Of a stretch of 64,000 nt of DNA, positions 27,483 to 49,008 are shown in pieces. The DNA comes from Candidatus Parcubacteria bacterium (lineage in GTDB: Bacteria > Patescibacteriota > Minisyncoccia > Phycocordibacterales > JAACPR01): NCBI GenBank assembly GCA_041158505.1, contig JBEBBG010000015.1, forward strand, positions 12,642-76,641, written 5' to 3'. Position 1 is the first letter of the stretch, and every line of letters starts with the position of its first letter. Position numbers and translations under genes: made by a program. The notes under the pieces were generated by a model that saw only the letters and a list, made by a program, of their open reading frames with translations, was not told the DNA's origin and searched no databases.

Positions 27483-28049
27483 CTAGGCAGCTGTTCTGCT
27501 AGAAACGTACGCATCAATGTTTTGATTAAGTCTTGCAACTTTTTTCGGAACAAACCTTTGAACCTCATCCAAAATAAACCAGAAAGCCTTTACTACTTTT
27601 GTGTGGTGATAGTGAACAGAGAGAATCAAAAACGTGTTGGCGGTGATGACGTCGTTAAAAGGGATGGCATCACTGATTGCAAAAAGTACAAGCATGAGCA
27701 TTATTTTTCGAAGGATAATCTTCTGAGTTATCCTGCTTATCGTGCCGCTTTCTTTTCCAAAAAACCAGAAAAAATTTATAACCCAAGTTAGTATTTTAAA
27801 AATCCAGTAAACAACAACACCAACACCTGTTAACGAAAGAAGGGACGCCGCTATAGAGAGGGTGTCAAAAATTGCATTTATTAAAACAATAAGTGTTGGG
27901 AATGGTGGTAGCTTTGGACGGTTTTCTAGAAGTTGAATAGACGCATCCCGATCAATATCAGTCGCAAATGTTTCTTTAAAGCGCCCCTGAAACTCTCTAA
28001 GGTGACGTTGGCTAGAACGAGCGTGGCGCACTATATTTCCGTCAGGCAT
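27483..28049 (-). CDS. polytopic membrane protein (T4SS-like cluster)
   Basis: Three to four TM segments (TLIVLINAIFDTLSIAASLL, VVVYWIFKILTWVINFFWFF, IMLMLVLFAI). ATG at 28049 (MPDGNIV); the track start at 28064 is GTG. Confidence 0.45.
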   Translation of the reverse strand: MPDGNIVRHARSSQRHLREFQGRFKETFATDIDRDASIQLLENRPKLPPFPTLIVLINAIFDTLSIAASLLSLTGVGVVVYWIFKILTWVINFFWFFGKESGTISRITQKIILRKIMLMLVLFAISDAIPFNDVITANTFLILSVHYHHTKVVKAFWFILDEVQRFVPKKVARLNQNIDAYVSSRTAA

Positions 28050-28053
28050 ACCC

Positions 28054-29925
28054 CTATCGTACACCCTTAATCTCTAGTCCACCACGAAGAGCTTCTGGAT
28101 TTGCCATACCACCAGATGCGCGGAGTTCTTCTTTTGCACGCTTAATTTGCAGCACCTGTGATGGGTCTGAGGTGATGATCTGGTCTTCAGTGTATGAGGC
28201 GATAATTTTAATCGCAATGTGCTTGATGCCAGCAAAGAAGATTCCCTCTCCCACTCCAGACTCAAGGAGAAGATACTTCTCTTCCTCGGTGAGGTTAAAG
28301 GTTTGCTGAATCATATCGATTGCAGTCGGTGATTGTTTCAAGAGGAGCTGGATTGATGAGTTGGTGATGATCGGCATACCGTATGGCGATCGAAGGAAGT
28401 CCTCAACGTCTTGGGTAATGGTAGACATACCGAGATAGTATTTTCGTCCTCGTTTTGCAAGCCCAAAGAGGAACGACGCGGTGTCGTCTGATTTCATCAT
28501 CCACCACGCCTCATCGATTACGAGCAGTCGCTTTTTGAGCTCTTTGCGCACAGCATTCCAAATGAAGTGCGTCACAAGGTACATTGCAACCGGCTTAAGT
28601 TCATCTTCCATGTCTCGAAGCGAGAACACGATGAAGCGCTTGTTTACGTCGATGTTTGTTGGTTTGTTGATGAAACCTGCCCAGGTACCACGTGTGTACT
28701 TTGAAAGCTTTTGAGCCATACTCTCCCCTCCCTCCATGCCGGAGAGCACATACTCGAAGTCAGAAAGAAGTGGTGGTTCAATATTTGAGAAATCACTTTC
28801 GGGAGTAATGTCTTTAAGCGCGTACGTTTCAGAAATCGCGCGATCAACGAGCGCATCTTCCTCAGGGGTGAGTCCACCAAGCATGAGTCGGAAAAGACCA
28901 ACAAGGTTCACAATATTTGATCGGAGCACGTCACCTGCAGATTCATCTGGTGTTGGTGGTGCAAGGTCAAACGGGTTGATGTGGTGATCTGAAGTAAGAG
29001 AAATATTGAAGTAGCGCCCGCCTGTTGCTTCCGCAAGGAATTCATATTCACGTTCCGGGTCGATTACAATGACGTCGGTGTCGAGCATCAGGGTGCGCAA
29101 GATCTCGAGCTTTGATGCGTACGATTTACCAGAACCAGCCTTTGCAAAGGTAACTGAGTTGTAGTTTTCAAGACTGAATCGGTCAAAGAGGACGAGCGAG
29201 TTGTTGTGTCGGTTAATACCAAAGAGAATTCCCTTATCCGAGGTAAGGTCAAACGAGATGAATGGAAAGAGGCTCGAGAGTGGTGCTGAGTTGAGCTTTG
29301 AATGCACGCCGAGAAGATCTTGCCCTGTTGGAATAACGGTCTTAAATGCCTCCTCCTGCTGGAAGAGTGCAGGCTTTACGTACACCAACTTTGCTTCGAG
29401 AATCGACTTTACCTCAGAATCGAACTTGTCGAGCTCATCTTTGTTGTCCGCATAGATGCTGATATAGAGACCAACATCAAAGATTTTCTCTTGTGCCTGC
29501 TGGAGGTTGTCACGGAGAATTTCAAGGTCTTGGTATGCGGTGTCGAGTACAGGATCGCGTACAAGCCCCTTCTCTTCTCGGGTGTGAATCTGGCTCTGCA
29601 CTTCGGCTACTTTCTTTTTAAATTGTCGAAGGATGGTTGCGGTATCGATTGGGTGCACAAAAATCGATACATCAAATACTTTGTCGAGGTTGATGATTGG
29701 TGCAAACCACGAGTCTGAAAGGAAGCGTGGGTACGAGATAACGAAGAACGTGCGCACCATTTTGTCACCAAGGTTGATGTCACGAGGGCTCATCTTGAGC
29801 GCTGAAGGCGCAATCACGTCTTGTAGCTCAAGCACGCCCGCCTCGTAAATTTCTTGTGGAAGAAATGACGTAATGTCAGGTGTTTTTGGAGCTTCCTTTT
29901 TCTTTAGAAAATCAAAGAGGGCCAT
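28054..29925 (-). CDS. T4SS ATPase VirB4/TrbE/PrgJ family, ATPase portion
   Basis: VirB4 N-region RTFFVISYP...FVHPID; Walker A FAKAGSGKSYA; Walker B LLVIDEAWWM; C-terminal TrbE-type domain. Starts at an ATG one codon after the in-frame TAG that ends the upstream ORF. Confidence 0.8.
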   Translation of the reverse strand: MALFDFLKKKEAPKTPDITSFLPQEIYEAGVLELQDVIAPSALKMSPRDINLGDKMVRTFFVISYPRFLSDSWFAPIINLDKVFDVSIFVHPIDTATILRQFKKKVAEVQSQIHTREEKGLVRDPVLDTAYQDLEILRDNLQQAQEKIFDVGLYISIYADNKDELDKFDSEVKSILEAKLVYVKPALFQQEEAFKTVIPTGQDLLGVHSKLNSAPLSSLFPFISFDLTSDKGILFGINRHNNSLVLFDRFSLENYNSVTFAKAGSGKSYASKLEILRTLMLDTDVIVIDPEREYEFLAEATGGRYFNISLTSDHHINPFDLAPPTPDESAGDVLRSNIVNLVGLFRLMLGGLTPEEDALVDRAISETYALKDITPESDFSNIEPPLLSDFEYVLSGMEGGESMAQKLSKYTRGTWAGFINKPTNIDVNKRFIVFSLRDMEDELKPVAMYLVTHFIWNAVRKELKKRLLVIDEAWWMMKSDDTASFLFGLAKRGRKYYLGMSTITQDVEDFLRSPYGMPIITNSSIQLLLKQSPTAIDMIQQTFNLTEEEKYLLLESGVGEGIFFAGIKHIAIKIIASYTEDQIITSDPSQVLQIKRAKEELRASGGMANPEALRGGLEIKGVR

Positions 29926-29928
29926 ATG

Positions 29929-30570
29929 CTAATTGTGTGGTAATGGTTTCTCAACATCACCTGGATTAAAGAGTCGGTAAAAGATTTCAATCACCTCTTC
30001 GGTGCCAAGTTGCACTGCGCGAATACCGCTGCGGACGATTCCAGACCGCACAACGGCGATACGCTGTTCAAGCTGGCTGCGTGCTTCCTCAAAATCTTCA
30101 GTCTTCATGTTTGCGTCTTTTTTGCCACCAAACGGATTGCTTACCTTTTTGCCGCGAACATCAATCGTTGGTGGTGTGTACGGAACTGTAATGTAAAAGG
30201 TCTTGGTCATAATGTTGGTGCGCTCAGTAAACGCTTGGATGAATCCAATGTACTCTTTGATTTGCACGCGCATGAGGTCGTTAATTTGCTCTCGCTCGCG
30301 AGCTTCAAGCATTGCTACGTATGGACGAATGTCGAGACGTCTCGACTGGATGAAGATTTGAACCGAGAAATTGAGCGAGTTGAGAAACTGTTGGAATTGG
30401 AAAATGATTGCACTCTGCTCCTCTTCTGATTTGAGCGCAAAGTTGATTGAAGAGGTCATGAGGATTGCGCGCATTGAACCATCCTTGAGCACAAGAATAC
30501 CGTCACGCACTTCACGCACGGGGACAAAGTCCTGTGTTGTTTTTGAGTTTGCTGCTGCCATATCGTGCAT
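29929..30570 (-). CDS. VirB4-family N-terminal domain protein; same frame as the ATPase ORF, separated by a single TAG
   Basis: VPVREVRDGILVLKDGSMRAILMTSSINFALKSEEEQSAIIFQFQQFLNS matches the conserved N-terminus of Gram-positive VirB4-like ATPases; frame continuity with 28054..29925 checked by coordinates. Confidence 0.5.
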   Translation of the reverse strand: MHDMAAANSKTTQDFVPVREVRDGILVLKDGSMRAILMTSSINFALKSEEEQSAIIFQFQQFLNSLNFSVQIFIQSRRLDIRPYVAMLEAREREQINDLMRVQIKEYIGFIQAFTERTNIMTKTFYITVPYTPPTIDVRGKKVSNPFGGKKDANMKTEDFEEARSQLEQRIAVVRSGIVRSGIRAVQLGTEEVIEIFYRLFNPGDVEKPLPHN

Positions 30571-30605: not shown

Positions 30606-31043
30606 TTACTGACGTGTGCGCGGATCAACGTCCTGGAGTGTTTGCAACGTCTCGTGAATATCGAGTCCCCACGATAAATCTTTGAGCTTACTGTTTGTTA
30701 CTTTTGGCACCTCTTGCGTAACGTACTGAATGACTTCGGCCGCTTTCTTCTCAGGTGTTTTTTCCCGTTTTTTCCAGAGGTATAACTTTGGTGAAAAGAT
30801 GAAACGAAACGCTGTTTCGAGGACCACAACAAGCGGCCGATTGTTTACTTGGTAAAAGGCAAAGCCAAAAAAGAGGAGTACTACTGGTAAGCCAATGACA
30901 ATTGCTAGAACCTTGGGCATGGTAGTCCAAAAGATGAAGGCGAACGCCAACCCCGCAGCCGAGTACAGGAACTGTTTAAGGGTGAGTGGTCCAAAAATCT
31001 TATCTTCTACTTCAAGGAATTGTGGTACTTGGTATTTTGCCAT
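30606..31043 (-). CDS. PrgI-family (VirB3-like) small membrane protein
   Basis: MAKYQVPQFLEVEDKIFGPLTLKQFLYSAAG then two TM helices: the PrgI-family signature (VPxDLxxEDKIFGxLTLRQ) and the canonical position immediately upstream of VirB4. Confidence 0.6.
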   Translation of the reverse strand: MAKYQVPQFLEVEDKIFGPLTLKQFLYSAAGLAFAFIFWTTMPKVLAIVIGLPVVLLFFGFAFYQVNNRPLVVVLETAFRFIFSPKLYLWKKREKTPEKKAAEVIQYVTQEVPKVTNSKLKDLSWGLDIHETLQTLQDVDPRTRQ

Positions 31044-31913: not shown

Positions 31914-33980
31914 CTATTCTTCTTTTTTATCACCCTTCGCGGCTTTAAGTGCTTTTATGATGTCGTATTTAACATCACGTTCTGCTTTAGCGAGTTCCTT
32001 TGCAATCGTTTTACCAGCAGCTGTTCGAGCAGGCTGCACCCATTTTAACTTACCAGCACCGCTTCGATTAAGCTGATCCCTATAGGTTTCAATGTAAACA
32101 TTCTTACTCTTATTGTATTTCTCTTTTGCTTCTCGAACGTCTTTCTTGGCAGTAGCGATTGATGCTTTTGAAGCATTAGTATCAATGAGGGTTTGGAGAG
32201 TTGCTTCCTTTGCATCAAGGTCTGCTTTATTTGGCTTAACAATATCATTACTGTCTGATACTTGCCCGATTGCTTCTGCTGCAAAGTTTGTAATTTTTTC
32301 TCGATTACTCTTAATGCTCGATGCATATCCTCCCTTACCCCCTGCAGCTCCAAATGCTTTATCCCCTACACCGGTTGCACTTGCGACTCCGGTAAATGTT
32401 TTTGAATTTCGAGCATCAAATGAGGCGCTGCCAATTCCTCGAGTTGTTTGAAGAGCAAATGCACCAATACGAGATTTTGCAGCCCACTCTTTAAATCCAT
32501 CTTTATCGGCAGCCCAGTTTGCAACGCGTCCAGGGAATTGTCTTCCAGCAAAAGCTGCGGTTCCAATAGCTGCACCACCAACTTTTGATGTAATGTTGCC
32601 GCTAAGTTTTGCAAGCGCTTTGTTTCCCATTGAGTGCATTTGTTTTGCTGCATAGAGGGCTCCAAGAAAGAGGCCAATAACGATACTGTATCGAACTAAA
32701 GGACTTGCTGCTGATGCAACCATTTTTACTATTGTTGATTGGACGCCCGCACTTGCCGCCGAAAAACCAACCTGAATACCAGAGGGGCTTGAAGTTTTTA
32801 CTATATCGAGTATTCCCTCTCCTCCGCTTCCTCCCATAAGCTTAAAGGCGATGAGTAGAAATAGTAGAAAAACAGGCAATGAAAAAGCATTTCCTATGAG
32901 TGAATCCCACCACTCCTGCGACATTTTTTTTGTCATTGGAAAGGCTTTTCCTACAAAACCAATTGGAGACAGAATAAGTAGAAAAACAATGATGAGGGTT
33001 CTCGCAATCAACATGAAAGCCCCAATAAACATCACAATCGCAAGTATGATGACGACCGCAATGGTCATTACAACACCAACACTTACCTGTATGAGTTGAT
33101 CAGTCGCACCGCTGTAGGTACTTTCATTGTTGCCAACTAATCCTGCACTATCCTTGCTTATTTTTAAGGCGTCTGTCTTTTCTAGTATAAAAGAACTTAC
33201 ACTTCTATCTCCAAGAACATTTTCAATGCTCTTCATGACAGAAAGAGCAAATTGGTTTGAGACGTCAACGATGACAGCCGCAAAAAAGAAGCTAAAGTTT
33301 ACGAGTAGGGCGGCAATAATGACATTTTTGAGAGCCTTTTTTGCTTCGCCGCTCTCTGTTTGTAAAATAAGGTTAATAGCGACGTAGAGTAAGATAAAGA
33401 CAAAACCAATGTTTACTAAGTCTCTAAAGATTTTCCATGCTTCATCTACAGACGCTCGAACGTTGCCACCCTCAGCAACCATAGAACTTAGACCGTAGGT
33501 ACTGATATTGATTGCTGTGTCGAGAAAAAAACCAGCAATGTAGAGTGTTAGTGATGCAACCCAGGTAATTGCAACTCCTATAGCACTAATTCCTGTCGTA
33601 AGACCTTTTAAAACAGTGGCAACTGTTTTCTCTAAACCAGATTTTTTAACTGTTTCAACAGCCGCTGCCCCGTCGTTAAATGCGTTTACCGGGTTTAGAC
33701 CTCGACCAAGTGCGTTAAAGAAGCCTTGGGCGCCCTCTTGCCCACTAATGGCCTTATTGTAGGACGCATTTTTGTCTAAACCGTTTAAACGAGATTGTAT
33801 GTAGTCGTCAACTAGTGCGCTGCGCAAGCTTGGCGGAATATTTGCTTCTCCAAAAATTTGCTGGGCTTCTTGTGCGTAGTTTTGATTTTGGGCATTTGCC
33901 GTGCTCGGTGCGTTAACAAAAAAAAGTCCAAGTAATACAGTACACAAAAAAATATGTTGTAAAACTCGACGCGCTCTCAT
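31914..33980 (-). CDS. large polytopic membrane protein, VirB6/TrbL/PrgH-like candidate
   Basis: 688 aa: signal peptide, periplasmic N-domain, at least six TM helices in the central region, Lys-rich cytoplasmic tail. Assignment is by architecture and context, not sequence motif. Confidence 0.45.
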   Translation of the reverse strand: MRARRVLQHIFLCTVLLGLFFVNAPSTANAQNQNYAQEAQQIFGEANIPPSLRSALVDDYIQSRLNGLDKNASYNKAISGQEGAQGFFNALGRGLNPVNAFNDGAAAVETVKKSGLEKTVATVLKGLTTGISAIGVAITWVASLTLYIAGFFLDTAINISTYGLSSMVAEGGNVRASVDEAWKIFRDLVNIGFVFILLYVAINLILQTESGEAKKALKNVIIAALLVNFSFFFAAVIVDVSNQFALSVMKSIENVLGDRSVSSFILEKTDALKISKDSAGLVGNNESTYSGATDQLIQVSVGVVMTIAVVIILAIVMFIGAFMLIARTLIIVFLLILSPIGFVGKAFPMTKKMSQEWWDSLIGNAFSLPVFLLFLLIAFKLMGGSGGEGILDIVKTSSPSGIQVGFSAASAGVQSTIVKMVASAASPLVRYSIVIGLFLGALYAAKQMHSMGNKALAKLSGNITSKVGGAAIGTAAFAGRQFPGRVANWAADKDGFKEWAAKSRIGAFALQTTRGIGSASFDARNSKTFTGVASATGVGDKAFGAAGGKGGYASSIKSNREKITNFAAEAIGQVSDSNDIVKPNKADLDAKEATLQTLIDTNASKASIATAKKDVREAKEKYNKSKNVYIETYRDQLNRSGAGKLKWVQPARTAAGKTIAKELAKAERDVKYDIIKALKAAKGDKKEE

Positions 33981-34041: not shown

Positions 34042-35577
34042 CTATGTTCTGTCCCCTAGTATGCTAGATTGCTTTGAAGAATTAGGAAGAAGCTTTGACG
34101 GCGGCTTTGTTAGTTGTTCTTGAAGAGCATCCAAAAGCTCCTCACCCTTCTCGTCGATATTTACGAGGCGTTGCTCTGCTAATCCTATTCGGTTTTCTGA
34201 AACCATTTTGATAAAGCTGCCCGGAATCTCAACGTCCCCGGTGTCTTGATCTTTTTTGCTCAAATATCCGTCGTTCATCTCGTACTCAGCTAGTTGCAGG
34301 TTAATACTGTTTGCTTGAATAGTTTCAATTTCTGCTTGTGCAGATAAGAAGCGGAGTAAATCACTGTTGACTGGATTAAGCCGAACAGCCAGTGTGTCCC
34401 AAGGATTTTTGCTCTCTTGCTCCTGTTGCTTTTGCTGTTCATGAATAGGTACACCATATTCGCTGGCCATGAGATTTTCTACGACGGTGTCACCTTGGCT
34501 GCCTTGTTGAGATTTTTTATATTCATCAATAAAAGACTCGAAATGCATTTGGGATAGATCACTGAGTGCCTGAGGGAGATTTTGAACAAATGCAGGGTTA
34601 CCACCAAAAGCTGTGGTGATGTAATTCCCTGAGCTCTCCACAACCGCGGCGGCCATCGCATCAGCAACACAGTTATCTGCAGCGTCGTATGATTTACTAC
34701 TTCCTCCTGGTTCCCCCGCGTCTTTACGCACAAGTTCCCACACGTACGCGTTAATGGTGAGGGTGTCGACGGGGACAGCATATTCCCCTGTTGCTTGAGA
34801 TGTGTTGCTTGATAAGCCACTTCCTTCCCCTCCTCCAATACCACTGGTGGTTTCTTTGTTACACTCAGTTGTTGCTTCTGTAAGGCTTGTGGGTTTGCCG
34901 TCGCCATCCGCATCACCGGTTGCACGAATAATGTCGCCACCCTGCTCCGGCTTCTCTGGTTCGTTTATAGGAACTTCATTTGGTTCAAATTCCTGAGATT
35001 GACCAGCGTTTCCAAGAGGGCTGCCTCCCGAATTTCCTCCAAGTAAATTCTGGACTGCCTGCGGTACACCCCCCTGTCCTCCTTGCTGTCCTCCGCCAAG
35101 CAGGTTCCCTAACGGGTTATTCCCTCCTCCGGGTAGTTGTGGCAATTGTGGCAACTGCGGCGTACTTCCTCCTTGGTTACCAAGGTTAGGAAGATTCACA
35201 TCTGCTTTTACATCTACTTCACAGGTTGCTTCTGCGCGCTCCCCGTTTGAAACAACGATAACGGTTGCCTTTTTTGTGCCGTAGCTACCGTAGCTGGTAG
35301 TGACCTGGGGCTTATCAACTGTTGTAATATTTACGCCACGCCACCGATACGCAATTTTACTTTCTGTACCTCGAACAGTTGCTCGCCAGATTACTGGCTC
35401 ATCACGTCCAACCTCTGCTTTTGAGGGAGCACAGGTTACTTTAAGCGTCGTTGCTTGAGCGTACCCAAGGTGTGGCAACAGCTGCACAACAAGTAGACCA
35501 CCGAGAATGGTAACAACTAACCCGCTTAAAACGAGCGGCTTGTATAGGATTTTTGTTGTTTTTAGAAATCGTTCCAT
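34042..35577 (-). CDS. membrane-anchored protein with Gly/Gln/Pro-rich low-complexity linker (T4SS-like cluster)
   Basis: N-terminal TM, PQLPQLPQLPGGGNNPLGNLLGGGQQGGQGG repeat tract, globular C-terminal domain. Confidence 0.45.
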   Translation of the reverse strand: MERFLKTTKILYKPLVLSGLVVTILGGLLVVQLLPHLGYAQATTLKVTCAPSKAEVGRDEPVIWRATVRGTESKIAYRWRGVNITTVDKPQVTTSYGSYGTKKATVIVVSNGERAEATCEVDVKADVNLPNLGNQGGSTPQLPQLPQLPGGGNNPLGNLLGGGQQGGQGGVPQAVQNLLGGNSGGSPLGNAGQSQEFEPNEVPINEPEKPEQGGDIIRATGDADGDGKPTSLTEATTECNKETTSGIGGGEGSGLSSNTSQATGEYAVPVDTLTINAYVWELVRKDAGEPGGSSKSYDAADNCVADAMAAAVVESSGNYITTAFGGNPAFVQNLPQALSDLSQMHFESFIDEYKKSQQGSQGDTVVENLMASEYGVPIHEQQKQQEQESKNPWDTLAVRLNPVNSDLLRFLSAQAEIETIQANSINLQLAEYEMNDGYLSKKDQDTGDVEIPGSFIKMVSENRIGLAEQRLVNIDEKGEELLDALQEQLTKPPSKLLPNSSKQSSILGDRT

Positions 35578-36527
35578 ACGTTTCCAAGTTCGTTACTATC
35601 AAAAAGTATACCATTCGATTTGAAGTATAGAGCGAGAGATTTCAGGTGTTCACGTTGTGTGGTTGGAAGCGCGTCGTAGTTTTGTTGTGCAAGGAGGCTG
35701 TAAACAGGATCGTTGCCTGTAAGGAGGAGCTTTGGAAGGTATACAGAGGCGCGGTATAAGTTATTAGTAAAATCAAGATGTGCCGCTACTGCTCCGTCTG
35801 GTACGGGCATCATTGAAAGCTCTTCGGCAAAGCTTTGGTAGTAAGCTTTAAGTGTGTTGACGTAGTCCTCGGGGGTGGTGTTTTTTGAAACCGAAGCAAG
35901 AGCAATTGTGTAACGAGTGTAGGTTCCAGCAAACGCGTTGCCATACTGGCGAACCTTTTCTGTATCGGCGTCACTAACTGTTTGGAGCTCAAAAACAGAG
36001 TATTTGTCAGGAATACTCACCTCTTCGCGGGCCTCCGCCGCAATCTGAGCCGTAAGAGCCGGAATTGTGTCATCTGTCATTTTTCCAGACTGCTTTAAAA
36101 GCAAGTAGTTTGAAATGAGCTTTGAGCTAACGATTTCAGAGAGGCTGCCGGGATTATAAAACAGAGAAGGTGTTGAGCTGCTTGTTGCAAACAGCATGTC
36201 GTCTGGTCCTGGGGTGAGCGGATCTCTGCCGCCGCGTGCTTCTGTCCCATCGAGCGCACCATCGCCGTCAGTGTCGGGGTTATTGCTGTCTGTGCCGCGC
36301 ACGGTTTCCTCCCAATCAAAGAGCCCATCATTGTCGGCGTCTGGGGCAACAAGGGTGTTGTTTGGAAAGATAGTTTCAGCTGTAAGCTCTACTGCTGGTG
36401 TCTCTGGTGCTGATGCTCGTTTTTCCGCGATGGCGTTTTTAATTTGATCAACAGCAATAATCCCTAGGGTAATCACGGCAACGGTTCCAACAATCATGAT
36501 TCGATTTTGATTCGCGCTTCGTGCCAT
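35562..36527 (-). CDS. membrane-anchored protein with thrombospondin-type-3-like Ca-binding Asp repeats; first gene of the T4SS-like operon
   Basis: N-terminal TM; DADNDGLFDWEETVRGTDSNNPDTDGDGALDGTE fits DxDxDGxxDxxE calcium-binding repeats. ATG at 36527. Confidence 0.5.
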   Translation of the reverse strand: MARSANQNRIMIVGTVAVITLGIIAVDQIKNAIAEKRASAPETPAVELTAETIFPNNTLVAPDADNDGLFDWEETVRGTDSNNPDTDGDGALDGTEARGGRDPLTPGPDDMLFATSSSTPSLFYNPGSLSEIVSSKLISNYLLLKQSGKMTDDTIPALTAQIAAEAREEVSIPDKYSVFELQTVSDADTEKVRQYGNAFAGTYTRYTIALASVSKNTTPEDYVNTLKAYYQSFAEELSMMPVPDGAVAAHLDFTNNLYRASVYLPKLLLTGNDPVYSLLAQQNYDALPTTQREHLKSLALYFKSNGILFDSNELGNVWNDF

Positions 36528-47976: not shown

Positions 47977-49008
47977 CTACAGCACAAGTTTAGCGCTTCG
48001 TAGTCGCTTCTTTACCTCCTGTAGTGTTTGTGGTTTGGTGCCAAAATATACGTACTCCTCATCAATAAAGGTGTAGAAGAAGATAACGTTGCCAGTACTG
48101 TCTTTAATGACTCGAGCATCACTATTTGCAATGACCTGATCAGAAAAGAGGCCTGCGGTAGTGCGCTGTGGAAGCGTTGGGGTCGCCTCTGTAGATGATG
48201 TGCTACTGGTTTCCTGTGTGTTGATTACCGTTGGTTGTGGCTGGTTAATTGGCTTGAGAACTGGAAAGAGGGGCTCGAGGTCTTTTGCCATATTTGCCTC
48301 CCAGTTAAAAAGCGTTGCAAAGACGGTATCGAAGGTGTTGATTTTAAACATCAAGAAAGTCTCGTTGGCAGCAGTTGCGTGCACTCCGAGGAAAAAGATG
48401 TCATCAATAGCCCGCCCAAATGAGCTGTCGATTCGAGCACGAACCAGCGCGAGCAATGCTTCACTTGTGTATGGAACTCCAACAATTGTTTGCACATTTC
48501 CTCCTGCGCTGCCGACCTCCTCTCGTATAATGCTTATTTGCTGAATAGATCCGCGCGGCATTGGACTCTTGAGTACTTGGTCAAGCTTAATGAGCGTATT
48601 TTGTGAGAGTTGTGCCGCAGCAACATCAATCACACCATCAGCTGGAAAGAATCGCTCCGCAGCTTGTGATTTTGGAGGTGGTGTATTTCCGTCATCTCGA
48701 GACAGGAAGGCAAACCCAAGGGTGAGTAATCCGAGGGTAAGGAGTACACCGGCTCCAGCAAGGAGAAACTTGTTCTTTGGTGTCTTAAGAGAGGTTTGTG
48801 CCTCTTCGTGCTGTGCGACGTCGCGCCGGCGTTCTTCTGCCATGAGCATTGAAGCTGTTGATACACTCTGTGATCGAATCGCTTCTTTTACCGCGTCTTG
48901 GTATGTAGTAACGCGACTAAGTACCACTTCTCCATCACTGTCTGGTGGAAGATCTGGCACGGTGTTTATTGGCGCGTCTGGTTGTGGTGTCGGTACAGGT
49001 TCTGTCAT
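47977..49008 (-). CDS. bitopic membrane protein (cytoplasmic N-domain, one TM, extracytoplasmic domain)
   Basis: TM FLLAGAGVLLTLGLLTLGFAFL around residue 90; unknown domains either side. Confidence 0.5.
   Translation of the reverse strand: MTEPVPTPQPDAPINTVPDLPPDSDGEVVLSRVTTYQDAVKEAIRSQSVSTASMLMAEERRRDVAQHEEAQTSLKTPKNKFLLAGAGVLLTLGLLTLGFAFLSRDDGNTPPPKSQAAERFFPADGVIDVAAAQLSQNTLIKLDQVLKSPMPRGSIQQISIIREEVGSAGGNVQTIVGVPYTSEALLALVRARIDSSFGRAIDDIFFLGVHATAANETFLMFKINTFDTVFATLFNWEANMAKDLEPLFPVLKPINQPQPTVINTQETSSTSSTEATPTLPQRTTAGLFSDQVIANSDARVIKDSTGNVIFFYTFIDEEYVYFGTKPQTLQEVKKRLRSAKLVL

Follow-up and report, generated by a model that had tools for sequence, protein, structure and literature searches.

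The VirB4 protein of a type IV secretion system in Candidatus Parcubacteria bacterium (assembly GCA_041158505.1) appears to be encoded as two separate polypeptides. We analyzed 64,000 nucleotides of contig JBEBBG010000015.1 (positions 12,642 to 76,641), hereafter the window, in which two neighboring minus-strand open reading frames (ORFs) of 213 and 623 amino acids (aa) together resemble one VirB4. Our reading, to which we give a probability of about 0.93, is that VirB4 is specified here by two adjacent and conserved cistrons: the first ~210 residues of the N-terminal domain are encoded by a TrsD-like gene, and the remainder of this domain together with the ATPase domain by a TrsE-like virB4 gene. 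An earlier note on this DNA, made from the sequence without database searches, had described a VirB4 whose reading frame is interrupted by a single TAG, followed after one codon by an ATG, and had left four alternatives: an authentic two-polypeptide VirB4, a recent nonsense mutation or pseudogenisation, a sequencing error, and programmed readthrough. The first of these is strongly supported by the comparisons reported here, while the other three are contradicted.

When positions 28054-30570 are translated in a single frame, exactly one internal stop is encountered; both ORFs share this frame and sum to 836 aa. The minus-strand reading across the junction is ...CCA CAC AAT TAG CAT ATG GCC CTC TTT GAT TTT..., that is, the stop codon of the first ORF, three nucleotides of spacer and the start codon of the second. 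The coordinates, common frame and 836-aa total given in the earlier note were borne out by the sequence, the ORF list and this one-frame translation. Both proteins are also recorded, identically, as separate genes of a Candidatus Parcubacteria metagenome-assembled genome: RL150_590 (MEY2641197.1) and RL150_589 (MEY2641196.1).

The larger ORF is recognizable as a VirB4-type ATPase. It matches NF045971, the NCBIfam model of CD1110-family VirB4-like conjugal transfer ATPases, with 364.7 bits and passes the cut-off of 325, covering only profile positions 185-732 of 752. Scores for TIGR00929 and other VirB4 models lie under their cut-offs. Pfam domains in this ORF are P-loop_TraG (E 1.5e-24), AAA_10 and DUF87, and both Walker motifs can be located (Table 1). 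The single polypeptide of ~800 aa that typifies the VirB4 family is not found here, the N-terminal and ATPase domains being carried on two ORFs.

The part of the profile left uncovered at the N-terminal side is matched by the smaller ORF, which aligns with positions 2-120 of the CD1110-family model (E 4.9e-9) and with positions 6-172 of TIGR00929 VirB4_CagE (E 2.1e-7). These NCBIfam matches agree with the domain assignments of the earlier note, a VirB4-type N-terminal domain followed by a VirB4 ATPase; what that note missed is the TrsD/TraD-type identity of the N-terminal ORF. The match to the TrsD/TraD family NF041427 has an E value of 1.7e-7 and 31.3 bits and does not reach the family cut-off of 200; on this profile evidence the 213-aa protein is a distant homolog of NF041427 that falls outside the curated staphylococcal/enterococcal subfamily. 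PF26593.2 (TraC-like) is present in the precomputed annotation of an identical protein (P0001) and of all homologs, while our local Pfam scan found no family even at E values up to 1; the library versions may differ. In place of Pfam, the small ORF was assigned through NCBIfam, BLASTP against a fused homolog and fold comparison. Some remoter TrsD-like homologs (for example P0153, P0154, P0166, P0167, P0198 and P0218) are longer, 280-443 aa, with the homologous region at the N-terminus and a C-terminal extension.

Structural comparison of the small protein points to the same family. Searching PDB sequences with a profile of the N-terminal part gave chance matches alone (E about 0.5). An AlphaFold2 (AF2) model of the 213-aa protein (pLDDT 72) had as its best 14 PDB matches exclusively TrwK/VirB4 chains of R388, at E values of 1.4e-3 to 1.3e-2 and TM scores of 0.41-0.48, and the next match had an E value of 0.5.

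Single-chain relatives allow both parts to be placed on one sequence. As a reference for both alignments we used P0251, a fused 797-aa VirB4 from Candidatus Colwellbacteria. The small ORF aligns to its residues 8-214 (39% identity, E 4e-49) and the large ORF to its residues 225-796 (56% identity), so that the two are colinear without overlap and together cover residues 8-796 of 797. The coordinates on the CD1110 VirB4 profile are complementary in the same manner (2-120 for the N-terminal and 185-732 for the C-terminal part). For the fused relative, an AF2 model (pLDDT 66.5) matches R388 TrwK from end to end (E 5.5e-27, ~840 alignment columns); its residues 212-214 form a linker of low confidence, precisely at the break point of the window gene. 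Judged from these alignments and models, the small ORF is the opening part of the N-terminal domain of VirB4, separated from the rest at a linker. Compared with the single-chain VirB4 proteins (R388 TrwK, the CD1110 family and Colwellbacteria), the window has identical domains in identical order; the difference is that they form one polypeptide there and two here, the break falling where the fused forms have a short linker of low confidence. Fused forms make up a sizeable clade mostly labeled Candidatus Colwellbacteria (P0251, P0276-P0394), in which 118 of the 120 best matches of P0251 are 775-807 aa long. Of the two exceptions one, P0294 with 600 aa, was considered as a recent fission inside this clade and was rejected, its apparent split being a scaffold gap of Ns (L089:1282-1760).

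The split is not peculiar to this genome. All 120 best protein-database matches of the 213-aa ORF, which share 63-100% identity with it, are stand-alone proteins of 202-220 aa and terminate a few variable residues past an invariant NPG-VE motif (NPGDVEKP in motif form). When the search was widened to the best 150 representatives of 50%-identity clusters, 149 were short (146-443 aa), and the one exception was the fused 797-aa protein. The same was seen at the DNA level, for which we fetched 80 loci from GTDB species-representative genomes, 79 of them holding both parts. The small ORF is terminated by a stop codon at each of these 79 loci (TAA 60, TAG 13, TGA 6), and the ATG of the ATPase ORF aligns to residue 1 of the 623-aa ORF in nearly all of them. 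Comparison of orthologs had been proposed in the earlier note, which held that uniformly uninterrupted orthologs would speak against an authentic split; the orthologs turned out to be uniformly split, and at the same place.

What varies among relatives is the spacer. Its length ranges from -4, a 4-nt ATGA overlap, to 450 nt, with 64 of the 79 loci at 30 nt or less, and the start is shifted in frame against the stop by 0, 1 and 2 in 19, 34 and 26 loci, respectively, which is roughly uniform (estimated chi-square ~4.3, two degrees of freedom). The five closest relatives retrieved (81-87% identity in the N-terminal part, 89-96% in the C-terminal part) have spacers of 1, 4, 4, 5 and 5 nt, all end the first gene with TAA and all are out of frame. 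Since the prior for a common frame is 1/3 and the offsets in relatives are distributed as above, the shared frame in the window can be attributed to chance. The common frame, the TAG and the ATG one codon on are, on this comparison, one arbitrary state of a freely drifting short spacer. The weight that the earlier note placed on these features is accordingly without significance, the closest relatives using TAA and the other two frames.

Both halves of the pair are maintained by selection. Against the five closest relatives, the ratio of nonsynonymous to synonymous substitution (dN/dS, Nei-Gojobori) lies at 0.045-0.06 in the small ORF and is lower still in the large ORF, at 0.02-0.03, with synonymous sites near saturation (pS 0.6-0.79). 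Such strong purifying selection on both ORFs excludes a recent lesion and relaxed selection.

Inspection of the related loci also yielded several incidental observations. In four species an ORF of 114-133 aa lies between the TrsD-like gene and virB4 (L013:4312-4757, L018:4640-5054, L032:4634-5087 and L033:4634-5058). The L018 copy was scanned and is a member of the 23S rRNA-intervening-sequence protein family (PF05635, E 4e-43) that also matches a bAvd-like family; the other three resemble it by eye, so that insertion recurs at one and the same place between the cistrons. Because a gene of this kind sits between them in four species, the two cistrons can be regarded as truly separable genes. 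At L072, from position 1009 onward (Parcubacteria group bacterium Athens0416_74), the virB4 ORF runs for just 202 aa before a stop, possibly a frameshift, a pseudogene or an assembly error. The 5.7-kb contig L025 (DATGWK010000001.1) is labeled "Candidatus Nanoarchaeia archaeon" but is probably mis-binned; its TrsD-like/virB4 pair (59% and 79% identity) is of the type usual in Patescibacteria.

A comparable pair of genes is known from Gram-positive conjugative plasmids. In the staphylococcal plasmid pSK41, which we fetched by accession, trsD (227 aa) is followed after 14 nt by the gene for TrsE, a 672-aa DUF87/VirB4 ATPase. Residue 6 of the 623-aa protein aligns with residue 5 of pSK41 TrsE (FLKKK...), the ATPase parts being 23% identical. 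Because the N-termini of the ATPase chains align in this way, we place the break point in the window at the same position as that between TrsD and TrsE. The TrsD/TraD and TrsE/TraE proteins of pGO1 and pSK41 (MPF_FATA class, pGO1 subclass) thus resemble the window in having a protein of ~200-230 aa encoded directly upstream of an ATPase gene that lacks this region. They differ in that the relationship is very distant and in that the genes are plasmid-borne and conjugative there but chromosomal here. A tblastn search of plasmids with the N-terminal part did not reach pGO1/pSK41. On megaplasmids of Bacillota (Pontibacillus sp. and Bacillus thuringiensis Bt407), an ORF for the N-terminal part, of 274 and 328 aa, overlaps the gene of a VirB4-like ATPase by 11-14 nt. 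Plasmid BTB_502p of Bt407 has, in addition, a PrgI-family gene directly upstream, giving the order PrgI, N-terminal part, VirB4.

Programmed readthrough or recoding of the TAG, giving a single fused VirB4 either alone or beside the two separate products, is very unlikely in our estimation. It would be in keeping with two ORFs in a common frame with one sense codon between them, and with the functional fused homologs of other lineages. Against it, 60 of the 79 relatives, including all five closest, have the two ORFs out of frame, and for this reason we consider that no fused product is under selection. TAG is moreover an ordinary stop in this DNA, as the earlier note had already remarked. Among 55 non-overlapping window ORFs of at least 120 aa, TAG is the commonest terminator (28), followed by TAA (23), and TGA is rare (4); the preference for TAG in the window may be set beside the TrsD-like genes of relatives, which mostly end in TAA. 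None of the four tRNAs found in the 64-kb window has a CUA anticodon. No stimulatory RNA structure was evident around the stop, the minimum free energy of -13.5 kcal/mol being no lower than in shuffled sequences (z 0.47). Lastly, the downstream ORF retains its own conserved ATG.

About equally improbable is the idea that the 213-aa protein is an independent paralog, a duplicate of the VirB4 N-terminal domain that serves a function of its own next to a complete VirB4. The literature does treat TrsD as a component in its own right, without assigning it a function, and TrsD homologs of Gracilibacteria were reported not to be associated with virB4 (PMC12102498). A complete VirB4 next to it would, however, be needed, and the 623-aa protein is without precisely the region that the 213-aa protein supplies, whether measured on the family profile or on the fused Colwellbacteria chain, where the two are colinear and do not overlap.

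Barely credible, by comparison, is a recent nonsense mutation or pseudogenisation that divided a single virB4 in this strain. The in-frame ORFs, apart by one stop and one codon, would give this appearance, and a single-chain VirB4 of 775-807 aa does exist in Candidatus Colwellbacteria, another Patescibacteria clade. The split is nevertheless at the same place in 120 of 120 closest homologs and 79 of 79 related loci; it is out of frame in the closest relatives and so long predates the strain. The low dN/dS (0.02-0.06) indicates that both parts are maintained, Walker A and Walker B are intact, and the second ORF begins with a conserved ATG and conserved N-terminal residues. A false stop made by sequencing or assembly is just as hard to credit: local errors do occur in metagenome-assembled genomes such as the source of this window, and the gap in P0294 is an example, but here the stop sits where every relative has one, followed by a conserved second-gene start, the identical 213-aa and 623-aa proteins are recorded on two contigs, from NCBI and JGI, and neither Ns nor homopolymer runs occur in the sequence at the site.

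Several points weigh against the two-cistron interpretation or parts of it. The match of the small protein to the TrsD/TraD family is far under the family cut-off (31 vs 200 bits), and hhalign gives a weak match between the N-terminal part alignment and TrsD of pSK41 (E 0.018 over 44 columns); because of this weakness, the link to TrsD rests on the NCBIfam profile and on the way the ATPase chains align at their N-termini. The AF2 models of the N-terminal part and of the fused relative are of moderate confidence (pLDDT 72 and 66.5, respectively). The steps discussed below, in which the cistrons would share a transcript, their translation would be coupled and their products would associate, are what we infer. 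Low-level TAG readthrough to a fused chain may also take place in this particular genome.

Table 1. Positions of the split virB4 gene, its motifs and neighboring genes in the window
Feature	Position	Strand	Remarks
TrsD-like gene, 213 aa	29929..30570	-	From ORF list; ~first 210 residues of VirB4 N-terminal domain
virB4 (trsE-like), 623 aa	28054..29925	-	Rest of VirB4 N-terminal domain and P-loop ATPase domain
Cistron junction	29923..29931	-	TrsD-like stop TAG 29931-29929; 3-nt spacer CAT 29928-29926; virB4 ATG 29925-29923
Walker A, AKAGSGKS	29122..29145	-	Residues 261-268 of 623-aa protein; block conserved with P0251
Walker B, LLVIDE	28510..28527	-	Residues 467-472; conserved in P0251 and pSK41 TrsE
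PrgI-family (VirB3-like) gene	30606..31043	-	Pfam PF12666, 41.3 bits vs cut-off 27; 35 nt upstream of TrsD-like gene
688-aa gene, possibly a polytopic VirB6-like conjugal transfer protein (tentative)	31914..33980	-	NF045848, E 1.3e-7, 31 bits vs cut-off 90
Gene after virB4, start ambiguous	27483..28064	-	GTG 28064 (11-nt overlap with virB4) or ATG 28049 (4 nt past virB4 stop)

The pair lies in a tightly packed minus-strand cluster of type IV secretion genes, separated by gaps of 3-70 nt or overlapping. The order PrgI, TrsD-like, virB4 is also seen in relatives. Farther upstream, the tentative assignment of the 688-aa gene comes from NF045848, the MMCAP2_0566 family of conjugal transfer proteins, and its ortholog at L086 has a faint TrbL match. 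The gene that follows virB4 had no family match in Pfam and NCBIfam scans.

From this arrangement a sequence of steps for producing the protein can be proposed. Both cistrons would be co-transcribed as parts of the packed operon. The virB4 cistron is then probably translated by termination-reinitiation coupling, which we propose because Shine-Dalgarno (SD) sequences are almost absent, 3 nt separate the stop from the start and spacers in the lineage are short, mostly 1-9 nt. An SD-like motif was found in just 3 of the 55 long window ORFs, and none is present at the virB4 start or junction. A complete VirB4 protomer would then probably arise by non-covalent association of the two polypeptides, and in it, going by general knowledge of R388 structures, the TrsD-like piece probably contacts the PrgI/VirB3-like membrane protein encoded just upstream.

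Start sites across the window have a further peculiarity. A -10-like hexamer (TATACT, TATAAT, TACAAT, TATGCT) lies about 2-12 nt ahead of many start codons; the minus-strand ORFs 31914..33980, 35562..36527, 47977..49008 and 29929..30570 exemplify these hexamers and the scarcity of SD motifs. The pattern suggests that mRNAs in this Parcubacteria genome are widely leaderless or near-leaderless. An internal promoter for virB4 was considered at 29926-29954 on the minus strand, TTGAGA-17 nt-TAGCAT, in which the -10 element would consist of the stop codon and spacer. It was rejected, the -10 element abutting the ATG, and promoter-like matches in the region were not above the shuffled expectation (6 vs 4.2 +/- 2.2).

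The arrangement in the window has already been described and is ordinary for the lineage, to which it adds one more instance. Quinonero-Coronel et al. (2025, Microb Genom, PMC12102498) counted 2,272 TrsD homologs, of which 1,664 adjoin virB4, and found TrsD next to virB4 to be the most abundant type IV secretion component of Patescibacteria. TrsD was described there as a remote homolog of the N-terminal portion of VirB4, and TrsD of S. epibionticum ML1 was listed as essential. Their TrsD and VirB4 of Patescibacteria (also known as CPR) agree with ours in lineage, gene pair and the PrgI/VirB3-like gene upstream, and we see no substantive difference. A term search of that paper returned neither the word "split" nor a fused form of TrsD and VirB4. 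The sole VirB4 fusion mentioned is that of VirB3 with VirB4, and it is mentioned as absent, none having been found in Patescibacteria (PMC12102498). VirB3-VirB4 fusions are a related case, in which the modules at the membrane-proximal N-terminal end of VirB4 are likewise rearranged, but they represent fusion instead of fission and involve another partner, and the PrgI gene is separate in the window. Our additions to the published account are small: the adjacent VirB4 is without the portion that TrsD resembles, the break point is common with pSK41, and a fused clade exists in Colwellbacteria.

For annotation, these results mean that the two-gene VirB4 is a normal, conserved form in Patescibacteria and in Gram-positive systems of the pGO1/pSK41 type. 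Where two neighboring ORFs share a frame and together make one VirB4, a pseudogene, an assembly error or a case of recoding is easily flagged by mistake. The small ORF would be better named a TrsD-like VirB4 N-terminal-domain protein than a "hypothetical protein".

The break point that Patescibacteria have in common with Bacillota megaplasmids and plasmids of the pGO1/pSK41 type raises the possibility of one ancient fission of VirB4 into TrsD and TrsE, inherited by Patescibacteria, in which case the single chains of Colwellbacteria would be secondary re-fusions. We hold this history tentatively and put its chances somewhat below even. If it is true, the origin of the Patescibacteria system would be tied to the pGO1-like subclass of monoderm conjugation machines.

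With regard to the protein itself, the first ~210 residues of VirB4 behave, as far as sequence comparison can indicate, as an autonomous module that is covalently attached in Colwellbacteria and classical VirB4 and is a separate chain elsewhere. Such a module could be used to study the docking of VirB4 to membrane components. Natural pairs of split and fused forms at 40-56% identity offer a ready test of the role of these residues, for example in docking to VirB3/PrgI. The lineage of the window consists of epibionts, in which the secretion system is thought to serve host-dependent growth and has been reported as essential for epibiotic life (PMC12102498, PMC12857230). A detachable N-terminal module may be independently regulated or exchanged in these epibionts.

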